Under the pieces are notes generated by a model. It did no database searches, had not been told where the DNA came from, and saw nothing but the letters and a program-made list of their open reading frames with translations. A program made the position numbers and the translations under genes. 51,050 bases of DNA from Anaerolineae bacterium (lineage in GTDB: Bacteria; Chloroflexota; JAHJIN01): assembly GCA_034435155.1 (NCBI GenBank), contig DAOTYG010000346.1, forward strand, positions 1 to 51,050, read 5' to 3'. Of the stretch, positions 5,131 to 50,708 are shown in pieces (within the stretch, counting starts at the first letter, position 1; every line of letters starts with the position of its first letter).

Positions 5131-7707
5131 GGCGCGCTCATCGTCTTCGGTGGATACCAGACCATCGAGCCGGGCGTCCAGCAGGGCCTCCAACACGCGG
5201 CGGTAGATCGGGCTGGGGGGAAGGCCCAGCGACCGCAGGTAGTTGCCGTCCAGGATGGGACGCACGTGCTGCCACTCCTCATGGTAGCGACGCAACCTGT
5301 CCCGCACCAGCTCGTCGTCGCAGGCGACCCAGGTGACAAAGAGGGCCTCAGCCGGATGGGGGCGCAGACGCCGGGCGATCTGGCTGGGCGTCAAATCCAG
5401 GGCTGTCAGGTCTGGTAACGCCAATTGGAGGGTGTGGACGGAATGCAAGACCTGAATATCCCGCGCCTCCGGCCGCAAACGGTCAATCAATCTCTCCAAT
5501 TCTGGAGTGCTCATGCGATATGTGAGCAGGGCCAGATAGGTTTGCACCGGGGTCGGCAAGCCCCACGAACTGGCGACACGTCGAGCCAGGGCAAATCGCT
5601 CCATGAGCCAGTCATCCACCACCAGGGCCGGATGCAGATGGGCCAGCACGCCCAACTCGGCCAGGCGCGCCAGGGCCCGTTCCGGTTCGCGTTCCTCCAG
5701 GATAAGCTCCAACTCATGGCGGATGCGCTTGGGCGAGACCCGCCGTAGCAGCCCCACCGCATCCAGGATCAGCTCCTCCGTCCGCTCCTCGATGCGAAAG
5801 CCCAGGCGTTGCTCGAAACGCACGGCCCGCAGGATGCGGGTGGCGTCCTCGACGAAGCTGAGGTTGTGCAGCACCCGGATAAGCCGTTTGTCCAGGTCCC
5901 GACGGCCACCGTAAAAGTCCACCAACTGCCCAAACCGGGCGCGGTTCAGGCGCAAGGCCATGGTGTTGATGGTAAAATCGCGGCGATAGAGGTCTCGTTT
6001 GATGGAACTGACTTCCACCTGGGGCAGGGCGGTGGGGTGTTCGTAGAACTCGGTGCGGGCGGTGACGAAATCCACGGCCGACGGCAGATCGTTCACGGCG
6101 AATGTCTGGCCGTTCACGGTGATGATTGACGGGGCGGCCGGTCGTTTCTCCGCGATGAGCCATTTGGCCGTGCCGAAACGGGCGTGGGAGCGGACCCGGC
6201 CGCCCAGTTCGGCGGCCAGGGTACGGGCCAGGGCGATGGCGTCGCCCTCTACCACCAGGTCCAGGTCCAGGTTTGGCAGGCCCAGGAGCAGGTCACGCAC
6301 CGGGCCACCCACCAGGTAGACGTTAAAGCCCAACCCATCGGCCACGTGGCCGATATGGCGCAGCAGGGCCACGACCGGGGTCGGGAGCGCGCTACTCATC
6401 TGGGCCGTCAGGTTGGGCGGGGCGGCGGCCGGCGGCTCGATGGAGAGACGGATGACGTCGGTGCGAGTGACGATACCGACGAGCCGGTCGCCGTCCACCA
6501 CCGGGATCTGGCCCACATCGTATTCCATCATCAGGCGGCGGATCTGGCTGACCGAGGCGGTGGGGGGGACCGAGACCGGGCCGGTGCGCATGTAGACGCG
6601 GATGGGGGCGGCACCCAGGTTATGGTAGAGGGCCTTGTCAATCTCGCGGCGGGTGAGGATGCCCAGGAGCGCGCCGCGTTCATCTACCACCGGGAATCCC
6701 TCGTAGCCGAAGCGTTGCATCATCTCGGCGGCCTCGGCCACGGTGGTGTTCGGCGAGAGGGTCTGCACGTTGCGGCTCATCAGTTCGGCGGCGGTGACGG
6801 CCGGGGGCACACAACTGGCCAGCAGTTCCAGCAAACGGTGATAGGTGGTGGTGAGATCAGTATCCCGTTGAAGGGCGGAAGCGGCTTTGGTGTGGCCGCC
6901 GCCGCCCAGCGGTTTCAGGATCGCCGCGACATCAATGGCATCTGTCTGGCTGCGGGCGATGATCTGGAGGTGTTGGTCCAACTGCACCAGCACAAAGCAG
7001 GCGGCCGGGTCGTATAGCTCCATCAATTTGTGGGCCAGGGTGGCCAGCTCCTCCACATAGCCGGCCACCTGGGCCGTGGCGATCAGCACGGTGTGGCCCT
7101 CATAGTCGCGGGTCTCCAGGTGACGTTCCAGGTCCTCGTAGACGGCACGTTGCTGGGGCGTGAGGGGCCGGTACAAAAAGTCGTTGAGCACGTCCAGACT
7201 GGCCCCGTGTTCCAGGAGCCAGGCAGCGGCCTGGAGGTCGCGGGGCGTGGTAGTGCTGTAGCGCAGGCAGCCGGTATCCTCGTAGATGCCCAGGAGCAGG
7301 AGGGTGGCCTCTACCGGGGTGAGGGCGATATGGGCCTCGACCAGGCGTTCCAGGAGCAGGGTGGTGGTGGCACCCACCTCCTCGCCGGTGTACGAGTCGC
7401 CGGGGCGCAGCTCACGCTTGAGGGGGTGGTGATCAATGATCAGCAGGGCTGTGTCGTCGCTCAGACCGCGCAACGGCGGCAGGGATTGGGTGTCCACCAG
7501 GATGGCGCGCTCGATCCGGGCGTGCTTGGGAATGTCACCCGGTTCGATGAAGGGTAGCAGATGGCGATAGAGGGCCAGGAAATCGCGGAGGTTGCGGTTG
7601 AGCATCCCCGGCAAGACCGGTACGGCGCCCGGGTAGAGCCTGGCCGCCGCCAGCATGGCCGCCAGCCCGTCAAAATCGGTATTGGGGTGGGTGACGATGA
7701 TCTCCAC
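5083..7707 (-). CDS. cca: DHH-DHHA1-CBS-containing tRNA nucleotidyltransferase (CCA- or A-adding enzyme)
   Basis: THPNTDFDG and IDHH (DHH), paired CBS domains, VGGPVRDLL, DLDLVV, RRDFTIN, EDATRILRA; probable GTG start 7707. Confidence 0.88.
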   Translation of the reverse strand: MEIIVTHPNTDFDGLAAMLAAARLYPGAVPVLPGMLNRNLRDFLALYRHLLPFIEPGDIPKHARIERAILVDTQSLPPLRGLSDDTALLIIDHHPLKRELRPGDSYTGEEVGATTTLLLERLVEAHIALTPVEATLLLLGIYEDTGCLRYSTTTPRDLQAAAWLLEHGASLDVLNDFLYRPLTPQQRAVYEDLERHLETRDYEGHTVLIATAQVAGYVEELATLAHKLMELYDPAACFVLVQLDQHLQIIARSQTDAIDVAAILKPLGGGGHTKAASALQRDTDLTTTYHRLLELLASCVPPAVTAAELMSRNVQTLSPNTTVAEAAEMMQRFGYEGFPVVDERGALLGILTRREIDKALYHNLGAAPIRVYMRTGPVSVPPTASVSQIRRLMMEYDVGQIPVVDGDRLVGIVTRTDVIRLSIEPPAAAPPNLTAQMSSALPTPVVALLRHIGHVADGLGFNVYLVGGPVRDLLLGLPNLDLDLVVEGDAIALARTLAAELGGRVRSHARFGTAKWLIAEKRPAAPSIITVNGQTFAVNDLPSAVDFVTARTEFYEHPTALPQVEVSSIKRDLYRRDFTINTMALRLNRARFGQLVDFYGGRRDLDKRLIRVLHNLSFVEDATRILRAVRFEQRLGFRIEERTEELILDAVGLLRRVSPKRIRHELELILEEREPERALARLAELGVLAHLHPALVVDDWLMERFALARRVASSWGLPTPVQTYLALLTYRMSTPELERLIDRLRPEARDIQVLHSVHTLQLALPDLTALDLTPSQIARRLRPHPAEALFVTWVACDDELVRDRLRRYHEEWQHVRPILDGNYLRSLGLPPSPIYRRVLEALLDARLDGLVSTEDDERAFIGTQIHADTHGSTG

Positions 7708-7936: not shown

Positions 7937-8929
7937 TCAGTTGCGTCGGCGCACCACATAGCTGGCCAGTTCGTGGAGCGAATGGCAGTGCTGGCTGTCG
8001 GCCAGGGTCGCCAGGGCAACCTGGGCCTCACGAGCAAAGGTTGCGGCTTCCTGATAGCTCTTTTCAATGGCGGCTGAGGCCGCGATGGCCGCCACGGCCT
8101 CGGCCAGTTGGCGTTCCTTTTCTGGCCCTGGAGCCTCGATGCCGCGATCCAGGTAGCGACGCACCGGGTTATCGGCTGGCGCGTCGGCCAGATAATATAG
8201 GGTGGGCAGGGTCACCGTGCCCTGGCGCAGGTCACTGCCCACTGGTTTGCCCAGTTCCTGGCAGGTACTGGTGAAATCCAGGATGTCGTCCACGATCTGG
8301 AAGGCCAGCCCCAGCTTGTGGCCGTATTCCCGCAGGGTTTCTTGCGCGGCCTGCGGTGCGCCCACGAGCAGAGCACCGCCCTCGGTCGCCAGGATAAAGA
8401 GGGCGGCTGTCTTGCTATAGATCTTTTGGTAATAGGCGGCCTTGCTTTGTCGCCAGTCTCGATTGCTGAACGCCTGGCGCAACTCGCCGCCGCAGATGGT
8501 CTCCAGGGTGCGGGCATAGAGGAGGGTGAGGGGGGTGTTTTCCACCCCGGCCCCCAGCACTGCCGACCGGGCGAATAGATAGTCTCCCACCAGGACGACC
8601 AGGCCGGCGGGCAAGATGGTATTGAGAGTCGGCTGACCGCGCCGCAATTCGGCTCTGTCCACCATATCATCGTGAATGAGGGTGGCTGTATGGAGTAACT
8701 CGGTGCCGGTGGCAAAGCGGATCGCCTTGTCCCGGTCAAAGTCGCCATCAGCCGCCACATGCACGGCCAGGAGGGCCAGCGCCGGGCGGATGCGCTTGCC
8801 CCCGGCCCGGAGCAGATGGTTCAACGCCGTGTTTAACCCGGCATAAGGGGTCGCGGCCTCCGCCAGCAGGCGCGCTTCTACCTGAGCCAGTTCGTCTTGG
8901 ATCGGGTGCAAGATTGTTTGGATATCCAA
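7937..8929 (-). CDS. Polyprenyl diphosphate synthase (HepT/IspB-like)
   Basis: GGKRIRP, HDDMVD..ELRRG (FARM), FQIVDDILD (SARM), GSDLRQG..TLP; TTG start 8929. Confidence 0.92.
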   Translation of the reverse strand: MDIQTILHPIQDELAQVEARLLAEAATPYAGLNTALNHLLRAGGKRIRPALALLAVHVAADGDFDRDKAIRFATGTELLHTATLIHDDMVDRAELRRGQPTLNTILPAGLVVLVGDYLFARSAVLGAGVENTPLTLLYARTLETICGGELRQAFSNRDWRQSKAAYYQKIYSKTAALFILATEGGALLVGAPQAAQETLREYGHKLGLAFQIVDDILDFTSTCQELGKPVGSDLRQGTVTLPTLYYLADAPADNPVRRYLDRGIEAPGPEKERQLAEAVAAIAASAAIEKSYQEAATFAREAQVALATLADSQHCHSLHELASYVVRRRN

Positions 8930-11567: not shown

Positions 11568-11667
11568 GGGAGTGGAAGGGTCCCGGTGGGCCCCGCGGGC
11601 TTCAAACCCGTTTGTTGGGCATGGCAAAGATGTCCAAGGTGGGTTCGACTCCCATGCACTCCCGCCA
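11568..11667 (+). tRNA. selC: tRNA-Sec (anticodon TCA)
   Basis: Anticodon loop CTTCAAA; 6-bp D stem with CGGT loop; long variable arm; GGTTCGACTCC T arm; ends GCCA. Confidence 0.93.
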
Positions 11668-41390: not shown

Positions 41391-41419
41391 TTGACAGAAA
41401 TCTCATCCTGTGGTATTAT
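41391..41419 (+). promoter_or_regulatory. rrn P1 promoter
   Basis: TTGACA-17 nt-TATTAT. Confidence 0.8.
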
Positions 41420-41526
41420 TATAATCTCATATGGGGAAGGGCAAAGTCGAGGGCAGACCTACAGCTGGGGGGTAAAAGTTGCCGGGCAGCCTCAAGCCCT
41501 TATAATCGAACAGCGTAGAAACGCCC

Positions 41527-41556
41527 TTGACACAAAGACCGAGGATATGCTATAAT
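41527..41556 (+). promoter_or_regulatory. rrn P2 promoter
   Basis: TTGACA-18 nt-TATAAT. Confidence 0.8.
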
Positions 41557-41583
41557 AAAAACGGCGGTGGGAAAAGCCGCGAG

Positions 41584-41612
41584 TGTACCTTAACAACTGA
41601 AGAGTGGTAGGA
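41584..41612 (+). promoter_or_regulatory. boxA / 16S processing-stem 5' arm
   Basis: TGTACCTTAACAACTGAAGAGTGGTAGGA pairs with TCCTATCACTCTTGAGTTGTTTAAGGTAC at about 43303-43331. Confidence 0.75.
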
Positions 41613-41660
41613 AGGCGCAGCAGATCCAGAGGTTCACACACCAAAGAACCCTAAATTTCT

Positions 41661-43193
<1,533 letters not shown>

Positions 43194-43338
43194 CTAGGGA
43201 GCACACCCTGCGGGAATACCCAAAACCCAAGCCCAAGATGATTGGGATTTGGGGCTTGGGATTTCCGTTAGGCCACTCCCAGGTCGATCCTCTGGAAGTC
43301 CTTCCTATCACTCTTGAGTTGTTTAAGGTACCCCCAGC

Positions 43339-43415
43339 GGGCCTTTAGCTCAGTCGGTTAGAGCGTTCCTCTGATAAGGGAAAGGTCTCAGGTTCGAATC
43401 CTGAAAGGCCCACCA
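43339..43415 (+). tRNA. tRNA-Ile (GAT)
   Basis: Cloverleaf, loop CTGATAA, ends CCA. Confidence 0.97.
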
Positions 43416-43512: not shown

Positions 43513-43587
43513 GGGGATGTAGCTCAGTGGGAGAGCGCCTCCCTTGCACGGAGGAAGTCAGGGGTTCGAATCCCCTCATCTCCACCA
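43513..43587 (+). tRNA. tRNA-Ala (TGC)
   Basis: GGGGATG acceptor with G3:U70, loop CTTGCAC, ends CCA. Confidence 0.97.
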
Positions 43588-43640
43588 GCCTTGACAGGTG
43601 CCAAGAGCAGAAACCACGAAAGCAAGGAAGGAGGAGGTAA

Positions 43641-43940
43641 ATGATGAAGAAAGTATCTGTGAAAATCTTCATTGCAATGGCAATCGTTGCGCTTTTACTT
43701 ACCACAACCGGTCTTGTAGTTCTTGCTGAGCCTCTGGCACCACAGGCTGATGATCCGGGCGGCGGCGGTGGCGGATGTGGGTGTTGTACTATGCGAGTTG
43801 AACGAATGTGTTTCAACAATGGCTGTGGCGGAGAAACGTGTTGGTGTAGGCGCTGTTTCTACAATAGTTGTGGTCAGCTCGTGGATTGTGGAAGGTGGTA
43901 TCGGTGTTCTCATAGCTGCATAACCAGCATAGAACGATAG
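43641..43940 (+). CDS. Secreted cysteine-rich peptide (12 Cys) within the rRNA ITS
   Basis: SD aaggaggaggt; Sec-type signal ending VLA; Gly6 linker; 12 Cys in last ~54 aa. Confidence 0.8.
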   Translation: MMKKVSVKIFIAMAIVALLLTTTGLVVLAEPLAPQADDPGGGGGGCGCCTMRVERMCFNNGCGGETCWCRRCFYNSCGQLVDCGRWYRCSHSCITSIER

Positions 43941-44078
43941 AACAAATAACGCCTGAATCAATCCTGGAATAAGCATAAGACAATTGATGAGTGAAGGGCA
44001 CGCTCTTAACTGAACTGTGCTGGGTTCAACTAAGGAGCCTCTGCCCTTCCGTCTTATATGTCATGTGAGAGGAGCAAA

Positions 44079-44975
44079 GTGAAGCAAAGGCGCGTCTTGG
44101 GGTTGATAGTCCAAGGCATATTCTTGGTTATGACCATAAGCATTGCTGGGTGCAAAGAACAATATGTACCTTCTACCATCATACCACACACTCCCCCTGC
44201 AGAGGGGACTTTCATAGCATCACCCCAAGCTTCTACAGTTGAAGCCTTCACTCCAACGCCACGCATCAAGGCGGCAGAGTCTCAGCATTTCGTATTCTTT
44301 GTGGATGAGAGCAACGTTGATTTTATAATACAAGTGGACAAGATTGAACAAGTATATGCCTATGTGACGCAACGGACAGGTAGCCCAATTAGAGGAAAGG
44401 TTGACGTAACCTTCAGGCAACCTCAGGTTCAACCATGTCCTATAAGAGGGATAGCAGTTTGGCCTGATCTTCAGATCGCCATTTATGCTGATGAGAGTGC
44501 GGGCCAAGACTGCATCTTGGCCGTCATTGCCTGTGAGATAGGCCATCTGATTCAATTTCAAAGTTTTGACGGGGGGCCAACTGATCCGATCCTTCTTGAG
44601 GGCTGGGCGACCTGGGTGGCGGGTTCCTATTGGATTGAGTGGCAGAGGATGCCCTCTTTTGATGAGGGGGTCCGCTCTTACTTGCGGGATAAGCGATTTG
44701 TTTCCATTTCTAGATTTGATATTTCAACCTTAATCTACAAGAGTGAAGAGTGCCTTGAGCGCAGGGATATTGTCTATACTGAATATGCCTCATTCCTCAA
44801 CTACCTCATTGAGCGATATGGAATTAACGCTTTGAATTCACTCATAACTGCAAATATCCCAACAAGCCCTCCCTCTGAGGGTGCTGATCCTCGAGCTGAC
44901 TATCAAACTGTATATGGCAAAACACTCCAGGAATTGGAAAACGACTGGATCAAGTATCTCATGGGAGGGAATTGA
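44079..44975 (+). CDS. Lipoprotein, peptidase MA/gluzincin-like fold with CEIGH...EG motif
   Basis: SD gaggag + GTG; lipobox IAGC; ACEIGH, LLEGWATW, Y..YASFLNYLIERYG, YG..L.ELE..W pattern. Confidence 0.72.
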   Translation: MKQRRVLGLIVQGIFLVMTISIAGCKEQYVPSTIIPHTPPAEGTFIASPQASTVEAFTPTPRIKAAESQHFVFFVDESNVDFIIQVDKIEQVYAYVTQRTGSPIRGKVDVTFRQPQVQPCPIRGIAVWPDLQIAIYADESAGQDCILAVIACEIGHLIQFQSFDGGPTDPILLEGWATWVAGSYWIEWQRMPSFDEGVRSYLRDKRFVSISRFDISTLIYKSEECLERRDIVYTEYASFLNYLIERYGINALNSLITANIPTSPPSEGADPRADYQTVYGKTLQELENDWIKYLMGGN

Positions 44976-45011
44976 ACGTTCCGGGTGGTCCAAAGTAGTC
45001 CAAAATGGCAC

Positions 45012-45040
45012 TTGACAGGGGTGAGAGATTAAGGTATACT
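45012..45040 (+). promoter_or_regulatory. Internal sigma70 promoter for 23S-5S
   Basis: TTGACA-17 nt-TATACT; boxA-like CACATTAACAACTGAA at about 45262-45277. Confidence 0.8.
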
Positions 45041-46019
45041 TGGGGTGAAATTAGAAACTAGCTAGGCTAGAAGGTGGAACATAACATGGCTGGTGAGGAC
45101 ACATAGAACGGTTTGCACGAGACCCCGGCAGCCCCAGGCGGCGCGAGGGTTCTCGGGCCGTTTTTTGTGCCTCTGAGAAGGTTGGCCGTCGGCCAGCGGG
45201 CGTGAGTGCCGAAGAGCATTGGCGTCCGGGGGCTGGTGACCAACAAGGTCACTGGGATCGCACATTAACAACTGAATAGAGATGCATGGCTTCAATTTCG
45301 CTGGCTTAACGAGGACAAGCTACTAAGGGCACATGGTGGATGCCTGGGCGTAAGGAGCCGAAGAAGGGCGCGGTAGGCGGCGATACGCCCCGGGGAGCGG
45401 CGAACACGCGTCGATCCGGGGATGCCCGAATGGGGAAACCCGGCGTGGGTAATACCACGTCACCCCCCGCTGAACACATAGGCGGGGTGGGGGGAACCGG
45501 GGGAACTGAAACATCTAAGTACCCCGAGGAAAAGAGAGTATTCCCTGAGTAGTGGCGAGCGAAAGGGGAACAGCCCAAACCGGTGTCGTGTCAAGGTCGC
45601 AGCCGTTGCGATACTGGGGTTGGAAGGCGCGGCGGGGTTGCTGCGAAGACCCACAGGAGTTACCAAACTGGTTTGTAATCGAAGGAACCTGGGAAGGACG
45701 TGCCATAGAGGGTGATAGCCCCGTAGATGAAACAAACCAGTCTCCTGCCGCTGACCTTGAGTACCACGGGGCACGCTAATCCTGTGGGAAGCAGGGGGGT
45801 CCACCTCCCAAGGCTAAATACTCCTTATGACCGATAGTGAACGAGTACCGTGAGGGAAAGGTGAAAAGCACCGGGGTGACCGGAGTGAAATAGTACCTGA
45901 AACCGTGTGCCTACAAGCAGTGGAAGGGTGTTGCCTCACTTTGAGGTAGCCTGACCGCGTGCCTTTTGGAGAATGAACCGGCGAGTTAATCTGTGTAGCC
46001 AGGCTAAGGGAGAGACACC

Positions 46020-46053
<34 letters not shown>

Positions 46054-46373
46054 CTATGGTTGCACGGATTAGACCCGAAACCAGGTGAGCTACCCATGGC
46101 CAGGGTGAAGCGAGGGTAATACCTCGTGGAGGCCCGAACCTTTCAGTGTTGCAAAACTGCTGGATGAGCTGTGGGTAGAGGTGATATGCCAAACGAACCT
46201 GGAAATAGCTGGTTCTCCCCGAAATAGCTTTAGGGCTAGCCTCAGGCGTTTAGCGATGGAGGTAGGGCTCTGGATGGGCTAGGGGCCAGAATGGTTACCA
46301 AACTCAACCAAACCACTAATGCCATCGCTCTAGAGCCTGGGAGTCGGACAGTGGGGGATAAGCTTCATTGTCG

Positions 46374-46408
<35 letters not shown>

Positions 46409-46445
46409 GAAGTCCAGGCTAAGTGGGAAAGGATGTGGGGGCGCG

Positions 46446-46527
<82 letters not shown>

Positions 46528-46564
46528 TAATCCAACGGGGCTTAAGCCTGGCACCGAAGCTGCG

Positions 46565-46648
46565 GGAGGTTGGGAACTGGTAAATCAGGGAATTGGTAGA
46601 TTGGGCAACCAATTTACCAGACTACCAATTTACCAATGTACCAACTTC
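46565..46648 (+). repeat. Helix-45 expansion / IVS built from 8-mer repeats
   Basis: Between CACCGAAGCTGCG and GGTAGGGGAGCG; five ACCAnnnT units pairing with TGG-containing arm; GCAA loop. Confidence 0.8.
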
Positions 46649-47287
46649 GGTAGGGGAGCGTTCTGCGCGCGGCGAAGCCAGACCGTAAGGACTGGTCGAG
46701 AGCGCAGAAGTGAGAATGCCGGTATGAGTAGCGTAAGGCGAGTGATGAAACTCGTCCGCCGAAAGCCTAAGGTTTCCTGGGGAAGGTTAATCCGCCCAGG
46801 GTCAGCCGGTCCTAAGCCGAGGCCCACCGGCGTAGGCGATGGATAACTGGTGTATATTCCAGTGCCATGAGGCATCGTTTGAGCGATGGGGGGACGCGGA
46901 AGGGTAGGCTAGCGCATTACTGGATTTGCGTTCGATGCCTGTAGGGGGTGGACCCAGGCAAATCCGGGTCCATATCCAACCCTGAGGGGCAAAGTAGGCC
47001 TTCGGGCCATAAGTAGTCAATCCCAGGCCGTCAAGAAAAGCCTCTAGCAAGATGCCCTCGTGACCGTACCGCAAACCGCCACTGGTAGGTAGGTAGAGCA
47101 TACCCAGGCGATCGGGAGAACCCTCGTTAAGGAATTAGGCAAATTGACCCCGTAACTTCGGGAGAAGGGGTGCCCCGGTAGGGTGAAAGTACAAGTTGCT
47201 GGAGCCCGAGGGGGTCGCAGCGAACAGGCTCGGGCGACTGTTTAACAAAAACACAGGTCTCTGCTAAAGCGAAAGCTGATGTATAGG

Positions 47288-47318
<31 letters not shown>

Positions 47319-47360
47319 AGGGAGGGGTTAGCTTCCCTTTGGGGGAGCGAAGCTCTGAAC

Positions 47361-48174
<814 letters not shown>

Positions 48175-48188
48175 AACGGTCCTAAGGT

Positions 48189-48876
48189 GACAGTCGTTGC
48201 CTGCCCCGGCGGTAACGTCGGGGGCAATACCTGGCTGTATGCGGGAATACCCTTAGAGCCCGTCCTACTCGGGAGATGATCTCCCAGTAAAAATGGCCGG
48301 GATTGGGCAATCCGCAGGAAACCCTTTGGAAGGGGATCCTCAGAGACTACACGCCAGGCGTCCAGTGTGGAGGTATCTATGGACCTCTCCCCCGACTGGG
48401 TAGTCGGGTTCGTGGATGGGGAGGGATGCTTCTACGTGGGCATCAATCCCCACCGCGAAATGACGGTAGGATACCAGGTTTTGCCCGAGTTCCGTGTGGT
48501 CCAGCATGAGAGTGATGTCCAGGTGCTTTACGCCCTGAAGAGATTCTTTCGATGTGGCGTTGTCCGTCGCAATCGAGAGGATCGTTACGAACTGAGAATC
48601 CGCAAACTATCTTGTCTGCAAGAGGTGGTAGAGTTTTTCGAGCACCATCCCTTGAAGACGAAGAAGAATGTGGATTTCAAAAAGTTCGCCCGGATTGTGA
48701 GATGGATGAGCGAAAAACAGCATCTCACGCCGGAGGGGTTGATCAAAATCGCTGAAACATCACTTTCAATGAATCACGCGGACAAGGTCAAGACCCAGGA
48801 AATCCTGCAGCTGCTGAAACAGCAGTATGGACGAAGAGATAGTCCACCCCAGGCAGAAATGTCTGGATGATAGGTG
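48189..48876 (+). ncRNA. Group I intron at 23S position 1931 (688 nt)
   Basis: Exons CCTAAGGT^AGCGAAAT; P1 AGGT/GCCT; P10 TCGTT/AGCGA; core ATGCGGGAA, AATCCGCAGG, TCAGAGACTAC, GATAGTCC; terminal G. Confidence 0.93.
48379..48870 (+). CDS. Single-motif LAGLIDADG homing endonuclease (L1931 intron)
   Basis: WVVGFVDGEGCF, FRVVQH, L.TKK..DF.KF, HLT.EG; SD ggaggt. Confidence 0.95.
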   Translation: MDLSPDWVVGFVDGEGCFYVGINPHREMTVGYQVLPEFRVVQHESDVQVLYALKRFFRCGVVRRNREDRYELRIRKLSCLQEVVEFFEHHPLKTKKNVDFKKFARIVRWMSEKQHLTPEGLIKIAETSLSMNHADKVKTQEILQLLKQQYGRRDSPPQAEMSG

Positions 48877-48896
48877 AGCGAAATTCCTTGTCGGGT

Positions 48897-49589
48897 AAGT
48901 GTAAACGAGCCCGTATCGGCTAATAACGGTGAAGCCCTACCTCGTTGCGGTGCACAAGGACACCGTGCCAAAGAGAGGGTGATACCGTGGGAAGTCGTCC
49001 GCAAGGATTGACCCCGTAACGACTGAGGCGCAAGCCGAGGTGGTGTCTCCTGCCCCAGCGGGCAAATCTATGAGCGCCACAACACGCCGATATCTCTCCC
49101 GAGGAGTGAAGCCCATGGATATCAAGTCCTATCTAACCGGGTATGCCGATGGTGAGGGATGCTTCTGCGTCTCCATTAACAGAAGCCGCAGGCACGCTTT
49201 TGGCTGGGAGATAAGGCCAAGTTTTTCCATCAGCCAAAACCGTGACCGCGCAGAGGTATTGGAGATATACCAACGTCAGTTTGGTTGTGGGAGCATCCGC
49301 CCGGACAGATCGGACAAGACGCTCAAGTATGAGGTTCGGAGCGTGAGGGAGCTAGTGCAGCGGGTAATACCTCATTTCGAGGAGACTCCTCTACTGTCCG
49401 GGAAGCGTCATGACTTTGAGAGGTTTGCTGTTATCTGTAGGATGATGTATGAGAGGCAGCACCTCACGAGGGATGGTTTCGACCGGATTGTGGACCTGGC
49501 TTTTGAGATGAATCCATCGGGTAATAGAAAGTATGCCAGGAGAGAGATAAAGATATAGTCTGTGCCCCTGGTAACAGGGGGAGCACACG
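48897..49589 (+). ncRNA. Group I intron at 23S position 1951 (693 nt)
   Basis: Exons TGTCGGGT^AAGTTCCGAC; P1 CGGGT/GCCCG; core AACGACTGA and AAGATATAGTCT; terminal G. Confidence 0.9.
49115..49558 (+). CDS. Single-motif LAGLIDADG homing endonuclease (L1951 intron)
   Basis: [35 protein letters not shown]; SD gaggag. Confidence 0.95.
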
Positions 49590-49686
49590 AAGTTCCGACC
49601 CGCACGAACGGCGTAACGATCCGAGCACTGTCTCGACGAGGGACCCGGCGAAATTGAAGTACCCGTGAAGATGCGGGTTACCCACG

Positions 49687-49717
<31 letters not shown>

Positions 49718-49923
49718 ACAGCTTGGCATTGAGTTGGAATCTGGCTTGTGTAGGATAGGTGGGAGACTGGGAAGCTGGGGCGCCAGCCTCGGTGGAGTCG
49801 GCGTTGAAATACCACTCTGGTCAGATTTTGACCCTAACCGGCGACCGTGAATCCGGCGCTGGGACAGTGCCTGGTGGGTAGTTTGACTGGGGCGGTCGCC
49901 TCCCAAAAGGTAACGGAGGCGCC

Positions 49924-49954
<31 letters not shown>

Positions 49955-49998
49955 CCAGAGAGTGTAAAGGCACAAGGGAGCTTGACTGCGAGACCCAC

Positions 49999-50034
<36 letters not shown>

Positions 50035-50063
50035 TACGGTCCCGTGTGGAAGGGCCGTGGCTT

Positions 50064-50096
<33 letters not shown>

Positions 50097-50126
50097 TATC
50101 TTGCCCAAGAGTTCACATCGACGGCA

Positions 50127-50168
<42 letters not shown>

Positions 50169-50172
50169 GAGT

Positions 50173-50258
<86 letters not shown>

Positions 50259-50374
50259 CGTGGGCGCAGGGGACTTGAGGGGAGTTGTCCACAGTACGAG
50301 AGGACCTGGATGAACAGACCTCTAGTGTGCCAGTTGTACCGCCAGGTGCATTGCTGGGTAGCTACGTCTGGAAG

Positions 50375-50407
<33 letters not shown>

Positions 50408-50591
50408 CCCCCCAAGATGAGGTCCCCCACCGGGTTAACCGGGTAAGACCGCAGGAAGAAGACCTGCTTGATAGGCGGCCAGTGTAAGCGCAGCAATGCG
50501 TTCAGCTTAGCCGTACTAATGGTCGAGGGCTTGTTCACGTTGAGCCAGCGACATTGAAGCTATGCACTCTATTCGACTGTCATAACAACCT

Positions 50592-50708
50592 TCTCCGTGA
50601 CTTTAGCGAAGGGGATCACCCAGTTCCATCCCGAACCTGGTCGTTAAGCCCTTCAGCGCCGACGATACTGGGGGGGCAGCCCCTTGGGAAAATAGGTCGT
50701 TGCGGAGA
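50592..50708 (+). rRNA. rrf: 5S rRNA
   Basis: CCATCCCGAAC, GTTAAGC, AGCGCCGACGATAC, ATAGGTCG; terminal stem TCTCCG/CGGAGA. Confidence 0.95.

Follow-up and report, generated by a model that had tools for sequence, protein, structure and literature searches.

What is a gene for a small, exported-looking and very cysteine-rich protein doing between the 16S and 23S ribosomal RNA (rRNA) genes of a bacterium, and what might its product do? The question is raised by a stretch of 51,050 nucleotides (nt) from an Anaerolineae bacterium (Chloroflexota; GenBank assembly GCA_034435155.1, contig DAOTYG010000346.1, positions 1 to 51,050 of the forward strand), referred to here as the window, in which an open reading frame (ORF) of 99 codons (the mini-gene; 43641-43940, + strand) is followed by a gene for a lipoprotein with a metallopeptidase-like domain. 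Judged by its sequence, the mini-ORF is a genuine gene that is conserved and encodes an exported-looking, Cys-rich product. A probability of roughly 0.5 is given to the reading that this pre-pro-peptide gene and the next gene form a horizontally acquired two-gene cassette of exported proteins in the 16S-23S spacer. The initial annotation of the mini-gene had described the ORF but overlooked its context; the foreign island in the rRNA spacer and the constant pairing with a gluzincin peptidase gene, the two most telling facts, went unseen.

The mini-gene and its product

A Shine-Dalgarno sequence (GGAGGAGG; 43630-43637, + strand), read directly in the sequence, precedes the mini-gene, whose product is MMKKVSVKIFIAMAIVALLLTTTGLVVLAEPLAPQADDPGGGGGGCGCCTMRVERMCFNNGCGGETCWCRRCFYNSCGQLVDCGRWYRCSHSCITSIER. 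Three parts follow one another on the + strand. The signal peptide (residues 1-29; 43641-43727), recognised from sequence and hydropathy, has the n-region MMKK, a hydrophobic core of 24 residues and a V-L-A/E cleavage motif, at which the predicted cleavage site was assigned by eye by using the (-3,-1) rule. It is followed by an acidic, Pro-rich linker, EPLAPQADDP plus Gly6 (43728-43775), a putative pro-piece with a net charge of -3, in which the Gly run (43758-43775) comprises exactly six residues. The Cys-rich domain (residues 46-99, then the stop codon; 43776-43940) has the verified pattern CGCC-x7-C-x4-C-x4-CWC-x2-C-x4-C-x5-C-x5-C-x3-C, then ITSIER, with 12 Cys in residues 46-93. Its core carries a net charge of +3 in the window copy and contains two Trp, two Tyr and two Phe together with the motifs CGCC, CWC and CxxC (C69-RR-C72) and one His.

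Among all six-frame stop-to-stop segments of the window, the mini-ORF has the highest Cys density (12 Cys in 55 amino acids (aa)); the runner-up, with nine, lies in a spurious frame. Such a density is unusual for bacteria. Every detail of the ORF as first annotated (Sec-type signal, EPLAPQADDP, six Gly and the 12-Cys spacing) was found to be correct when the sequence was read again. The suggestion that the acidic segment is a pro-piece also agrees with what was found, since the motif A/EPLxPxADDPG is kept in the 48 %-identical relative P0005 and the charge of the segment (-3) opposes that of the core (+3). The "hexaglycine hinge" is a more limited feature: the six Gly are present here, but the run is lineage-specific and reads PGDGGC in P0005.

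Coding status and conservation

Neither the window nor the three homologous loci compared with it have an open frame other than +1. Between the window and the L007 locus, the mini-gene differs by 18.5 synonymous changes in 66 sites and 18.5 non-synonymous changes in 222 sites, which corresponds to a ratio of non-synonymous to synonymous rates (dN/dS) of 0.25 (Fisher p = 2e-4); for the Cys-rich part, dN was 0.07 and dS 0.27. All 12 Cys are invariant across three close lineages, and the length of the Gly6 run is constant in three lineages although its codons vary synonymously. The claim that the mini-gene is real and encodes an exported Cys-rich protein is thus upheld by the single open frame, the dN/dS ratio and the invariant Cys, and is considered very probable.

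Relatives are few. A collection of 5.8 billion proteins contained two close ones, P0001 (94 %) and P0002 (80 %), and the exact 99-aa product was absent from a collection of 15 billion proteins. With the Cys domain as query, an exhaustive HMMER run over 1.84 billion representatives gave only P0002 and P0005 as true relatives; three further matches were rejected as repeats within long unrelated proteins. A profile search for the mini-protein gave no additional relatives, and a scan of metagenome DNA for the mini-gene returned the same three groups and nothing else. P0005 (107 aa) is 48 % identical overall, with saturated synonymous sites. It retains the signal, the A/EPLxPxADDPG segment, an [FY]YN[SG]CGQLV motif and SIER at the C terminus. 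Its Cys likewise number 12, C83 having been lost (to Val) and another Cys gained in the preceding segment; the Gly6 run is absent, and neither W68 nor W86 is conserved.

The gene caller used on L035, an identical metagenomic contig, had reported a 57-aa ORF in frame +2 (L035 2693-2866, equivalent to window 43750-43923) instead of the mini-gene. This frame, called by the Joint Genome Institute (JGI), was rejected as it is closed in the homologues. Genes of this kind escape standard gene callers or are assigned the wrong frame.

The partner gene

The product of the next gene (44079-44975, + strand; GTG start) is a lipoprotein of 298 aa whose metallopeptidase domain is of the M1-like gluzincin type; if translation began at an in-frame ATG (44058), it would have 305 aa. 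Its N terminus, MKQRRVLGLIVQGIFLVMTISIAG-C25, contains the lipobox IAG-C25 expected of a bacterial lipoprotein, and the lipobox Cys is kept in P0008-P0012. Both island genes are preceded by strong Shine-Dalgarno sequences. The Pfam match to Peptidase_MA_2 was weak and below the gathering cut-off, but the AlphaFold2 (AF2) model (overall predicted local distance difference test score (pLDDT) 80.6) shows a well-modelled domain behind disordered residues 1-56 (pLDDT < 50). The disordered N-terminal part might serve as a flexible stalk. Foldseek placed the domain with M1 aminopeptidase catalytic domains (IRAP, ERAP1 and the D. radiodurans M1 enzyme; E ~1e-5), and by profile alignment the HExxH-x18-E of the partner family aligns with the aminopeptidase N motif.

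The fold and the third zinc ligand, a Glu (44598-44600, + strand), fit clan MA(E), but the window copy has CExxH instead of HExxH: its active-site motif is CEIGH (44532-44546, + strand). HExxH occurs in 14 of the 16 peptidase homologues, CEIGH in the window and the L007/L012 lineage, and HEMGH in the L001 lineage. The His-to-Cys swap requires two nucleotide changes, and the gene is still under purifying selection, with a dN/dS of 0.30 and such selection in all three lineages.

The gluzincin lipoprotein gene adjoins the mini-gene at every locus that carries the latter (L001-L012, L008-L011, L031 and L033-L035). It lies immediately downstream except in L033/L034, where the mini-gene follows the peptidase gene. 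A functional link between the mini-protein and the peptidase is therefore judged, from gene order, to be somewhat probable. The two genes differ in their divergence from L001 (8238-9578), with a dS of 0.046 for the mini-gene and 0.29 for the peptidase gene, the latter being closer to L007; these unequal values suggest recombination between the genes (43641 to 44975).

The rRNA operon and the foreign island

The operon order is 16S, tRNA-Ile, tRNA-Ala, mini-gene, lipoprotein metallopeptidase gene and 23S. On the + strand, Rfam and ARAGORN located the 16S rRNA (41658-43193; SSU_rRNA_bacteria, 1523 bits), the transfer RNA (tRNA) genes tRNA-Ile(GAT) (43339-43415) and tRNA-Ala(TGC) (43513-43587), directly 3' of which the island starts, and the 23S rRNA (45327-50526), which is interrupted at 47487-49657; the 5S rRNA (50593-50708) follows in the order given by the same programs. 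Promoter-like sites lie upstream of the 16S gene (41391-41556). Both processing stems are intact, the 16S flanks (41564-41665 and 43232-43340) pairing with -86.7 kcal/mol and the 23S flanks (45224-45331 and 50509-50600) with -92.5 kcal/mol, and both carry a boxA-like TTAACAACTGAA, that of the 23S stem at 45265-45276 (+ strand). The genes thus share one strand, a tRNA spacer and complete stems, as in a linked rRNA operon, but at 2,133 nt the spacer is longer than the 1,500 nt that Brewer et al. allow for linked genes. The complete genomes of their survey had at most 1,500 nt between 16S and 23S in 98.7 % of the pairs (mean 419 nt), and unlinked rRNA genes were enriched in Chloroflexi (bioRxiv 10.1101/705046).

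The island has a GC content of 46-50 %, and its two ORFs have a GC content at third codon positions (GC3) of 0.43 and 0.47, against 0.76-0.83 in host genes. Because this GC3 is far below that of the host genes, the two-ORF island is regarded as foreign DNA. No relative of either island gene was found among viral contigs and plasmid records, and a phage or plasmid origin was therefore dropped. The remaining window is ordinary chromosome, with genes for DnaE, ribosomal protein S1 and the CCA-adding enzyme; a tRNA-Sec gene (anticodon TCA; 11568-11667) implies that selenoproteins are synthesised in the organism.

Neither a sigma-70-like promoter (+ strand) nor a convincing terminator was seen from tRNA-Ala up to the ATG of the mini-gene, and the island itself likewise showed no convincing terminator; co-transcription with the 16S and tRNA genes is therefore the simplest reading, and the mini-gene is probably co-transcribed with rRNA. 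Between the island and the 23S gene lies a promoter-like TTGACA-17-TATACT (45012-45040, + strand; 11 of 12 consensus positions), identical in four lineages, which could restart 23S transcription. Some 55 nt past it, alignment and a consensus fold (-37.6 kcal/mol) gave a long conserved hairpin with a T6 run in its 3' arm (45095-45174, + strand). This promoter-like/hairpin element had no Rfam match, and a relaxed Rfam scan of the island returned chance-level snoRNA matches only. In L002, the element precedes two further genes and not the 23S gene.

The 11-nt sequence CTTGACAGGTG stands just after tRNA-Ala (43590-43600), and a second copy (45011-45021; CTTGACAGGGG here, exact in L001/L007) overlaps the conserved -35 box. 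The pair is possibly a short target duplication around the module of mini-gene and peptidase gene. A decayed 3' half of tRNA-Ala was rejected as the module boundary, as only the 11-nt CTTGACAGGTG is common and the 44 nt upstream are no closer than shuffled sequence.

Other mobile elements were seen in the rRNA genes. The insert in the 23S gene (47487-49657, ~2.2 kb) contains three LAGLIDADG_1 ORFs (47534-48040, 48367-48870 and 49040-49558) and one Rfam group I intron match (48132-48866); L002 has only a short group I intron lacking an ORF at the corresponding place. In L001, the 3' end of the 16S gene contains a group I intron (5499-6315) that carries a LAGLIDADG_3 ORF (5743-6291); the 16S gene of the window is free of it.

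The same gene order was found in independent assemblies whose 16S genes are 99.0 % (L001/L002/L003) and 97.6 % (L012/L007) identical to that of the window. The spacer of the L001 lineage holds two extra modules: one for an Amidase_6 protein and a 224-aa protein upstream, and one for proteins of 310 and 147 aa downstream. The Amidase_6 module of L001 (1.4 kb) is bracketed by a 55-nt direct repeat (6709-6763 and 8146-8200, 98 % identical) consisting of the tRNA-Ala 3' half and a further 13 nt; no integrase is encoded within this module, despite the att-like signature of the repeat. Each of the four extra spacer proteins of the relatives (L001 6801-8144; L002 2990-4362) has a signal peptide or membrane anchor. 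All spacer-borne proteins begin with such signals or anchors, and every spacer gene in the clade therefore encodes an extracytoplasmic protein.

Paralogues and redoxin neighbours

The gene for P0005 lies outside any rRNA operon, in the order membrane-anchored CPAC redoxin, mini-gene, lipoprotein peptidase with the motif HEIGH, and solute-binding protein. In L008, the redoxin is membrane-anchored, carries the CPAC motif and was matched best, among NCBIfam models, by MauD (E = 5e-23, below the family cut-off) and ResA. Pairs of a redoxin gene and a following mini-gene number two in L008 and one in L033. Two redoxin genes also flank the gene of the close peptidase relative in L030. This context indicates that extracytoplasmic thiol chemistry matters.

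Further small ORFs on the same contigs are paralogous to the mini-gene: they have a common signal, MRKNGK[IM]QR.VMGILA..., and Cys/Trp-rich mature parts that are unrelated to one another. They comprise L008 4289-4528 (10 Cys; directly after another redoxin gene), L033 1212-1517 (8 Cys; after a redoxin gene), L033 4951-5231 (12 Cys; after a peptidase gene) and L013 1012-1329 (nine Cys in the mature part; motifs CDPSWCC...FYNGCGQLV). Across the six paralogue types, the Cys counts are 12, 12, 10, 8, 12 and 9, that is, even in five of the six. A small-x-small (AxA-type) cleavage motif stands at the same place in all six, and the mature parts are rich in aromatic residues.

The initial annotation had argued from the even number of Cys to six possible disulfides. 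In its favour, an even count is kept in P0005 through one loss and one gain, and the relatives have CPAC thioredoxin-fold neighbours; because redoxins of the ResA/TlpA type are often reductants, disulfides are favoured and not proven. Cross-linking of the mini-protein by disulfides is graded as likely.

Family, fold and class

No family was assigned to the mini-protein in Pfam, NCBIfam, PADLOC or PHROGs, the lone Pfam line (E = 0.54) covering the signal peptide. A phmmer search of PDB sequences gave nothing below E = 1. AF2, run with a four-sequence alignment, gave a mean pLDDT of 63, with ~75 for residues 50-90 and three predicted beta-strands. Foldseek of this weak model returned nothing below E = 0.2 from the PDB or the viral BFVD; the best PDB match had E = 0.29, and no knottin was among the matches. 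A literature search for a described equivalent found none. The absence of a characterised family thus stands, without a significant match in any of these sources, and the mini-protein appears to found a tiny uncharacterised family, restricted to few lineages and undescribed in every library searched. The likeness to knottins (a core of ~30 aa with six Cys, knotted by the disulfides I-IV, II-V and III-VI) or defensins that had been drawn from the Cys density is, at the level of the fold, unsupported by the weak AF2 model and the Foldseek searches.

Membership of five further classes was assessed and rejected. A CSalpha-beta defensin has six or eight Cys and a helical CxxxC ahead of a CxC on a beta-strand; here the order is reversed (CWC at 67-69 stands before CSHSC at 89-93), and neither a core helix nor a Pfam or PDB match was obtained. 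Metallothioneins (including SmtA/BmtA) are cytoplasmic, with ~30 % Cys, a conserved metal-cluster pattern and practically no aromatic residues; membership is opposed by export through a signal peptide, the aromatic core, the lack of a Pfam or NCBIfam match and Cys positions that vary among paralogues. The N terminus is a hydrophobic Sec signal and the spacer has no ABC (ATP-binding cassette)/C39 gene, unlike class II double-glycine bacteriocins, whose amphipathic leader of 15-30 aa ends in GG and is cut by a C39-domain ABC exporter with a gene close by. Cys-based RiPPs (peptides made on the ribosome and modified after translation; sacti-, ranthi- and lanthipeptides) were set aside on the Sec-type signal and the lack of radical-SAM or lanthionine enzymes in the island and the related loci; it is because no radical-SAM, lanthionine or C39/ABC genes are nearby that both the RiPP and the double-glycine classes do not apply. 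A small subunit of a MauA-type quinoprotein was rejected on the missing family match, the lack of conservation of W68 and W86 in P0005, and the presence in relatives of only a MauD/ResA-like redoxin.

Proposed function and alternatives

The cassette reading would work as follows. Lacking a recognisable promoter of its own, the cassette would be transcribed from the rRNA promoters within pre-rRNA, and 3' processing of tRNA-Ala together with RNase III cuts at the 16S and 23S stems would free an mRNA with strong ribosome-binding sites. The 99-aa product would be exported by Sec and cleaved after VLA29. Outside the membrane, its 12 Cys could form up to six disulfides, to give a compact, beta-rich mini-protein of ~54 aa. 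In the relatives, the co-encoded, membrane-anchored ResA/MauD-like thioredoxin-fold protein may carry out or proof-read the disulfide step; the window contains no redoxin gene, and in this genome a thiol-redox helper would have to be encoded elsewhere. The membrane-tethered M1-like gluzincin on its stalk might trim the acidic, Gly-rich pro-piece, or it might protect the producer; that the mini-protein is a substrate of the peptidase is rather doubtful. The mature peptide would act extracellularly, as an antagonistic (bacteriocin-like) or signalling molecule, a role that is suggested by the paralogues, with their common signal peptide and hypervariable Cys-rich mature parts, and that is put forward tentatively. 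A wider proposal, in which the spacer after tRNA-Ala is a capture site and expression platform for foreign exported-protein cassettes, whose mRNAs are cut from pre-rRNA by tRNA and RNase III processing so that a bacterial six-disulfide peptide of a new kind is made in step with ribosomes, is thought unlikely.

Several observations weigh against the cassette reading. Cys are odd in number in the mature part of one paralogue (L013 1012-1329). The core charge of +3 here is not shared by the paralogues, in which it is ~0 or negative; a cationic antimicrobial signature is thus not consistently present. At a pLDDT of 63, AF2 modelled the mini-protein only moderately well. With Cys in place of His as the first zinc ligand, peptidase activity is uncertain. 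The more distant peptidase homologues L016, L020, L030 and L032 lack a mini-gene, L030 being the closest peptidase relative outside an rRNA operon (58 % identity). When genome representatives were scanned with the profile of the peptidase, only distant homologues were returned, in Roseiflexaceae and Chloroflexi metagenome-assembled genomes, likewise without a mini-gene. The mini-gene can also disappear. In L013, a remnant (5762-5971) consists of the signal and ADDP only, with the Cys domain deleted and the peptidase gene beside it intact, and in L012 (9566-9841) a 1-nt deletion in an A4 run shifts the frame after CGGK, which may be a sequencing error. The habit of ResA/TlpA-type redoxins to act as reductants would also fit a metal-binding thiolate protein.

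In the alternative that survives best, the mini-protein is not a substrate of the neighbouring metallopeptidase but its cognate inhibitor or regulator, a small and rigid protein lodged in the active site so as to block it. AprA/AprI and the Streptomyces metalloproteinase inhibitor SMPI are precedents for protease-inhibitor gene pairs, and small disulfide-rich proteins are typical protease inhibitors. The invariable adjacency of the two genes at loci with a mini-gene would follow from such a pair, as would the lack of a pro-domain in the peptidase, whose residues 26-60 form the disordered stalk. An inhibitor is nevertheless improbable, as two paralogues (L008 4289-4528 and L033 1212-1517) adjoin redoxin genes and have no peptidase gene in their vicinity, the active-site region of the peptidase is conserved in contrast to the hypervariable mature parts, the peptidase has stayed intact at loci that have lost or lack the mini-gene (L013, L030), and the two genes have different divergence histories between the window and L001 (dS 0.046 and 0.29).

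An exported metal-binding protein, with a Cu, Zn or Fe-S thiolate cluster and Cys kept reduced by TlpA/ResA-like reductases, is quite improbable. The CGCC, CWC and CxxC (C69-RR-C72) motifs and the single His speak for it, redoxins of the TlpA/ResA/Sco type are typically extracytoplasmic reductants for metal or haem insertion, and a redoxin of L030 has a weak SCO1-SenC match (E = 0.003). However, each mature part contains Trp, Tyr, Phe and bulky residues, unlike metallothioneins, and no metallothionein or copper-storage family of Pfam or NCBIfam was matched; the Cys positions differ among the paralogues, whereas metal clusters need a fixed geometry, and the even Cys count has been kept by a compensating loss and gain.

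Very small weight is given to a structural component of the envelope or sheath with intermolecular disulfides, analogous to Chlamydia OmcA without homology. Export, the very high Cys content, the abundance to be expected from co-transcription with rRNA and the free thiol that an odd Cys count would leave in one paralogue for intermolecular bonds agree with it, but the mini-protein has no anchor, lipobox or sorting motif, hypervariability among paralogues and sporadic loss are unusual in structural proteins, and the family is confined to very few lineages.

Least probable is a selfish or decaying hitch-hiker of the spacer, conserved through recent insertion and not productively translated from pre-rRNA: the foreign composition, the frameshifted copy in L012, the deletion remnant in L013, the mobile elements that fill the rRNA operon (three LAGLIDADG ORFs and a group I intron) and the gene callers' failure to find or correctly frame the mini-gene would suit it, but both genes are under purifying selection across lineages differing by 1-2.4 % in 16S, both have a strong Shine-Dalgarno sequence, the Gly6 length is constant despite synonymous changes, and an intact homologue exists at a non-rRNA locus.

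Significance

Secreted disulfide-rich peptides with accessory genes are of a known kind; unusual here are the Cys density, the M1-like lipoprotein partner with its His-to-Cys swap and the address in an rRNA spacer. Few bacterial mini-proteins would be as densely cross-linked as this peptide, if it is made and carries six disulfides in ~54 residues, and it would offer a new, probably very stable scaffold. Its source is a high-GC bacterium, and the only named relatives of the partner peptidase are in Chloroflexota. With its conserved signal, hypervariable Cys-rich part and thiol-redox and protease neighbours, the family resembles the peptide families of animal venoms and immunity, and it would extend this mode of evolution to bacteria. 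Genes for foreign exported proteins that have long been kept in an otherwise intact rRNA operon open the expression of mRNA from pre-rRNA to testing. The locus likewise bears on how rRNA operons become "unlinked".

Comparison with known systems

In eukaryotic Cys-rich precursors (defensins, knottins, conotoxins and mussel MgCRP-I; PMC4558851), the same layout is found, with a signal, a short acidic pro-region and a compact Cys-rich part. The pre-region is likewise conserved among paralogues and the mature part hypervariable around the cysteines, and an anionic linker likewise balances a cationic core (in the window copy). The mini-protein differs in being bacterial, in having 12 Cys and not six to eight, and in lacking a sequence or fold match and the CSalpha-beta order of motifs; it is, moreover, accompanied by a lipoprotein metallopeptidase and, in relatives, by a thioredoxin-fold protein.

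Unmodified bacteriocins with disulfides and defensin-like peptides of bacteria, such as laterosporulin and AdDLP, are small, ribosomally made, exported and disulfide-stabilised, and are encoded in small clusters with accessory or immunity genes. These peptides have two to three disulfides and other leaders, and no homology to the mini-protein was detected; the mini-gene comes without an ABC/C39 exporter or a double-glycine leader. MauA, with 12 Cys, six disulfides and a dedicated thioredoxin-like membrane helper (MauD), is comparable to the mini-protein beside an anchored CxxC redoxin in the relatives. Unlike in the MauA/MauD pair, other mau genes and a conserved Trp pair are missing, the mini-protein is not homologous to MauA, and the window has no redoxin gene.

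The M1 gluzincins (clan MA(E), Peptidase_MA_2) have HExxH and a Glu ~18-21 residues further on, and the fold of the partner matches their catalytic domains. The partner differs from them as a lone catalytic domain on a lipoprotein stalk, without the GxMEN exopeptidase motif and, in the window, with Cys at the position of the first zinc His (CEIGH).

The E. coli tufB operon is transcribed as a tRNA-mRNA co-transcript, and as in co-transcripts of this type the protein genes here stand directly downstream of tRNA genes. With the long or unlinked spacers surveyed earlier (bioRxiv 10.1101/705046), the present spacer has its length, 2,133 nt, in common. Unlike unlinked rRNA genes, however, the operon retains both stems and both boxA-like elements and looks intact, and the genes inserted into its spacer, of which relatives carry up to six, all encode exported proteins.

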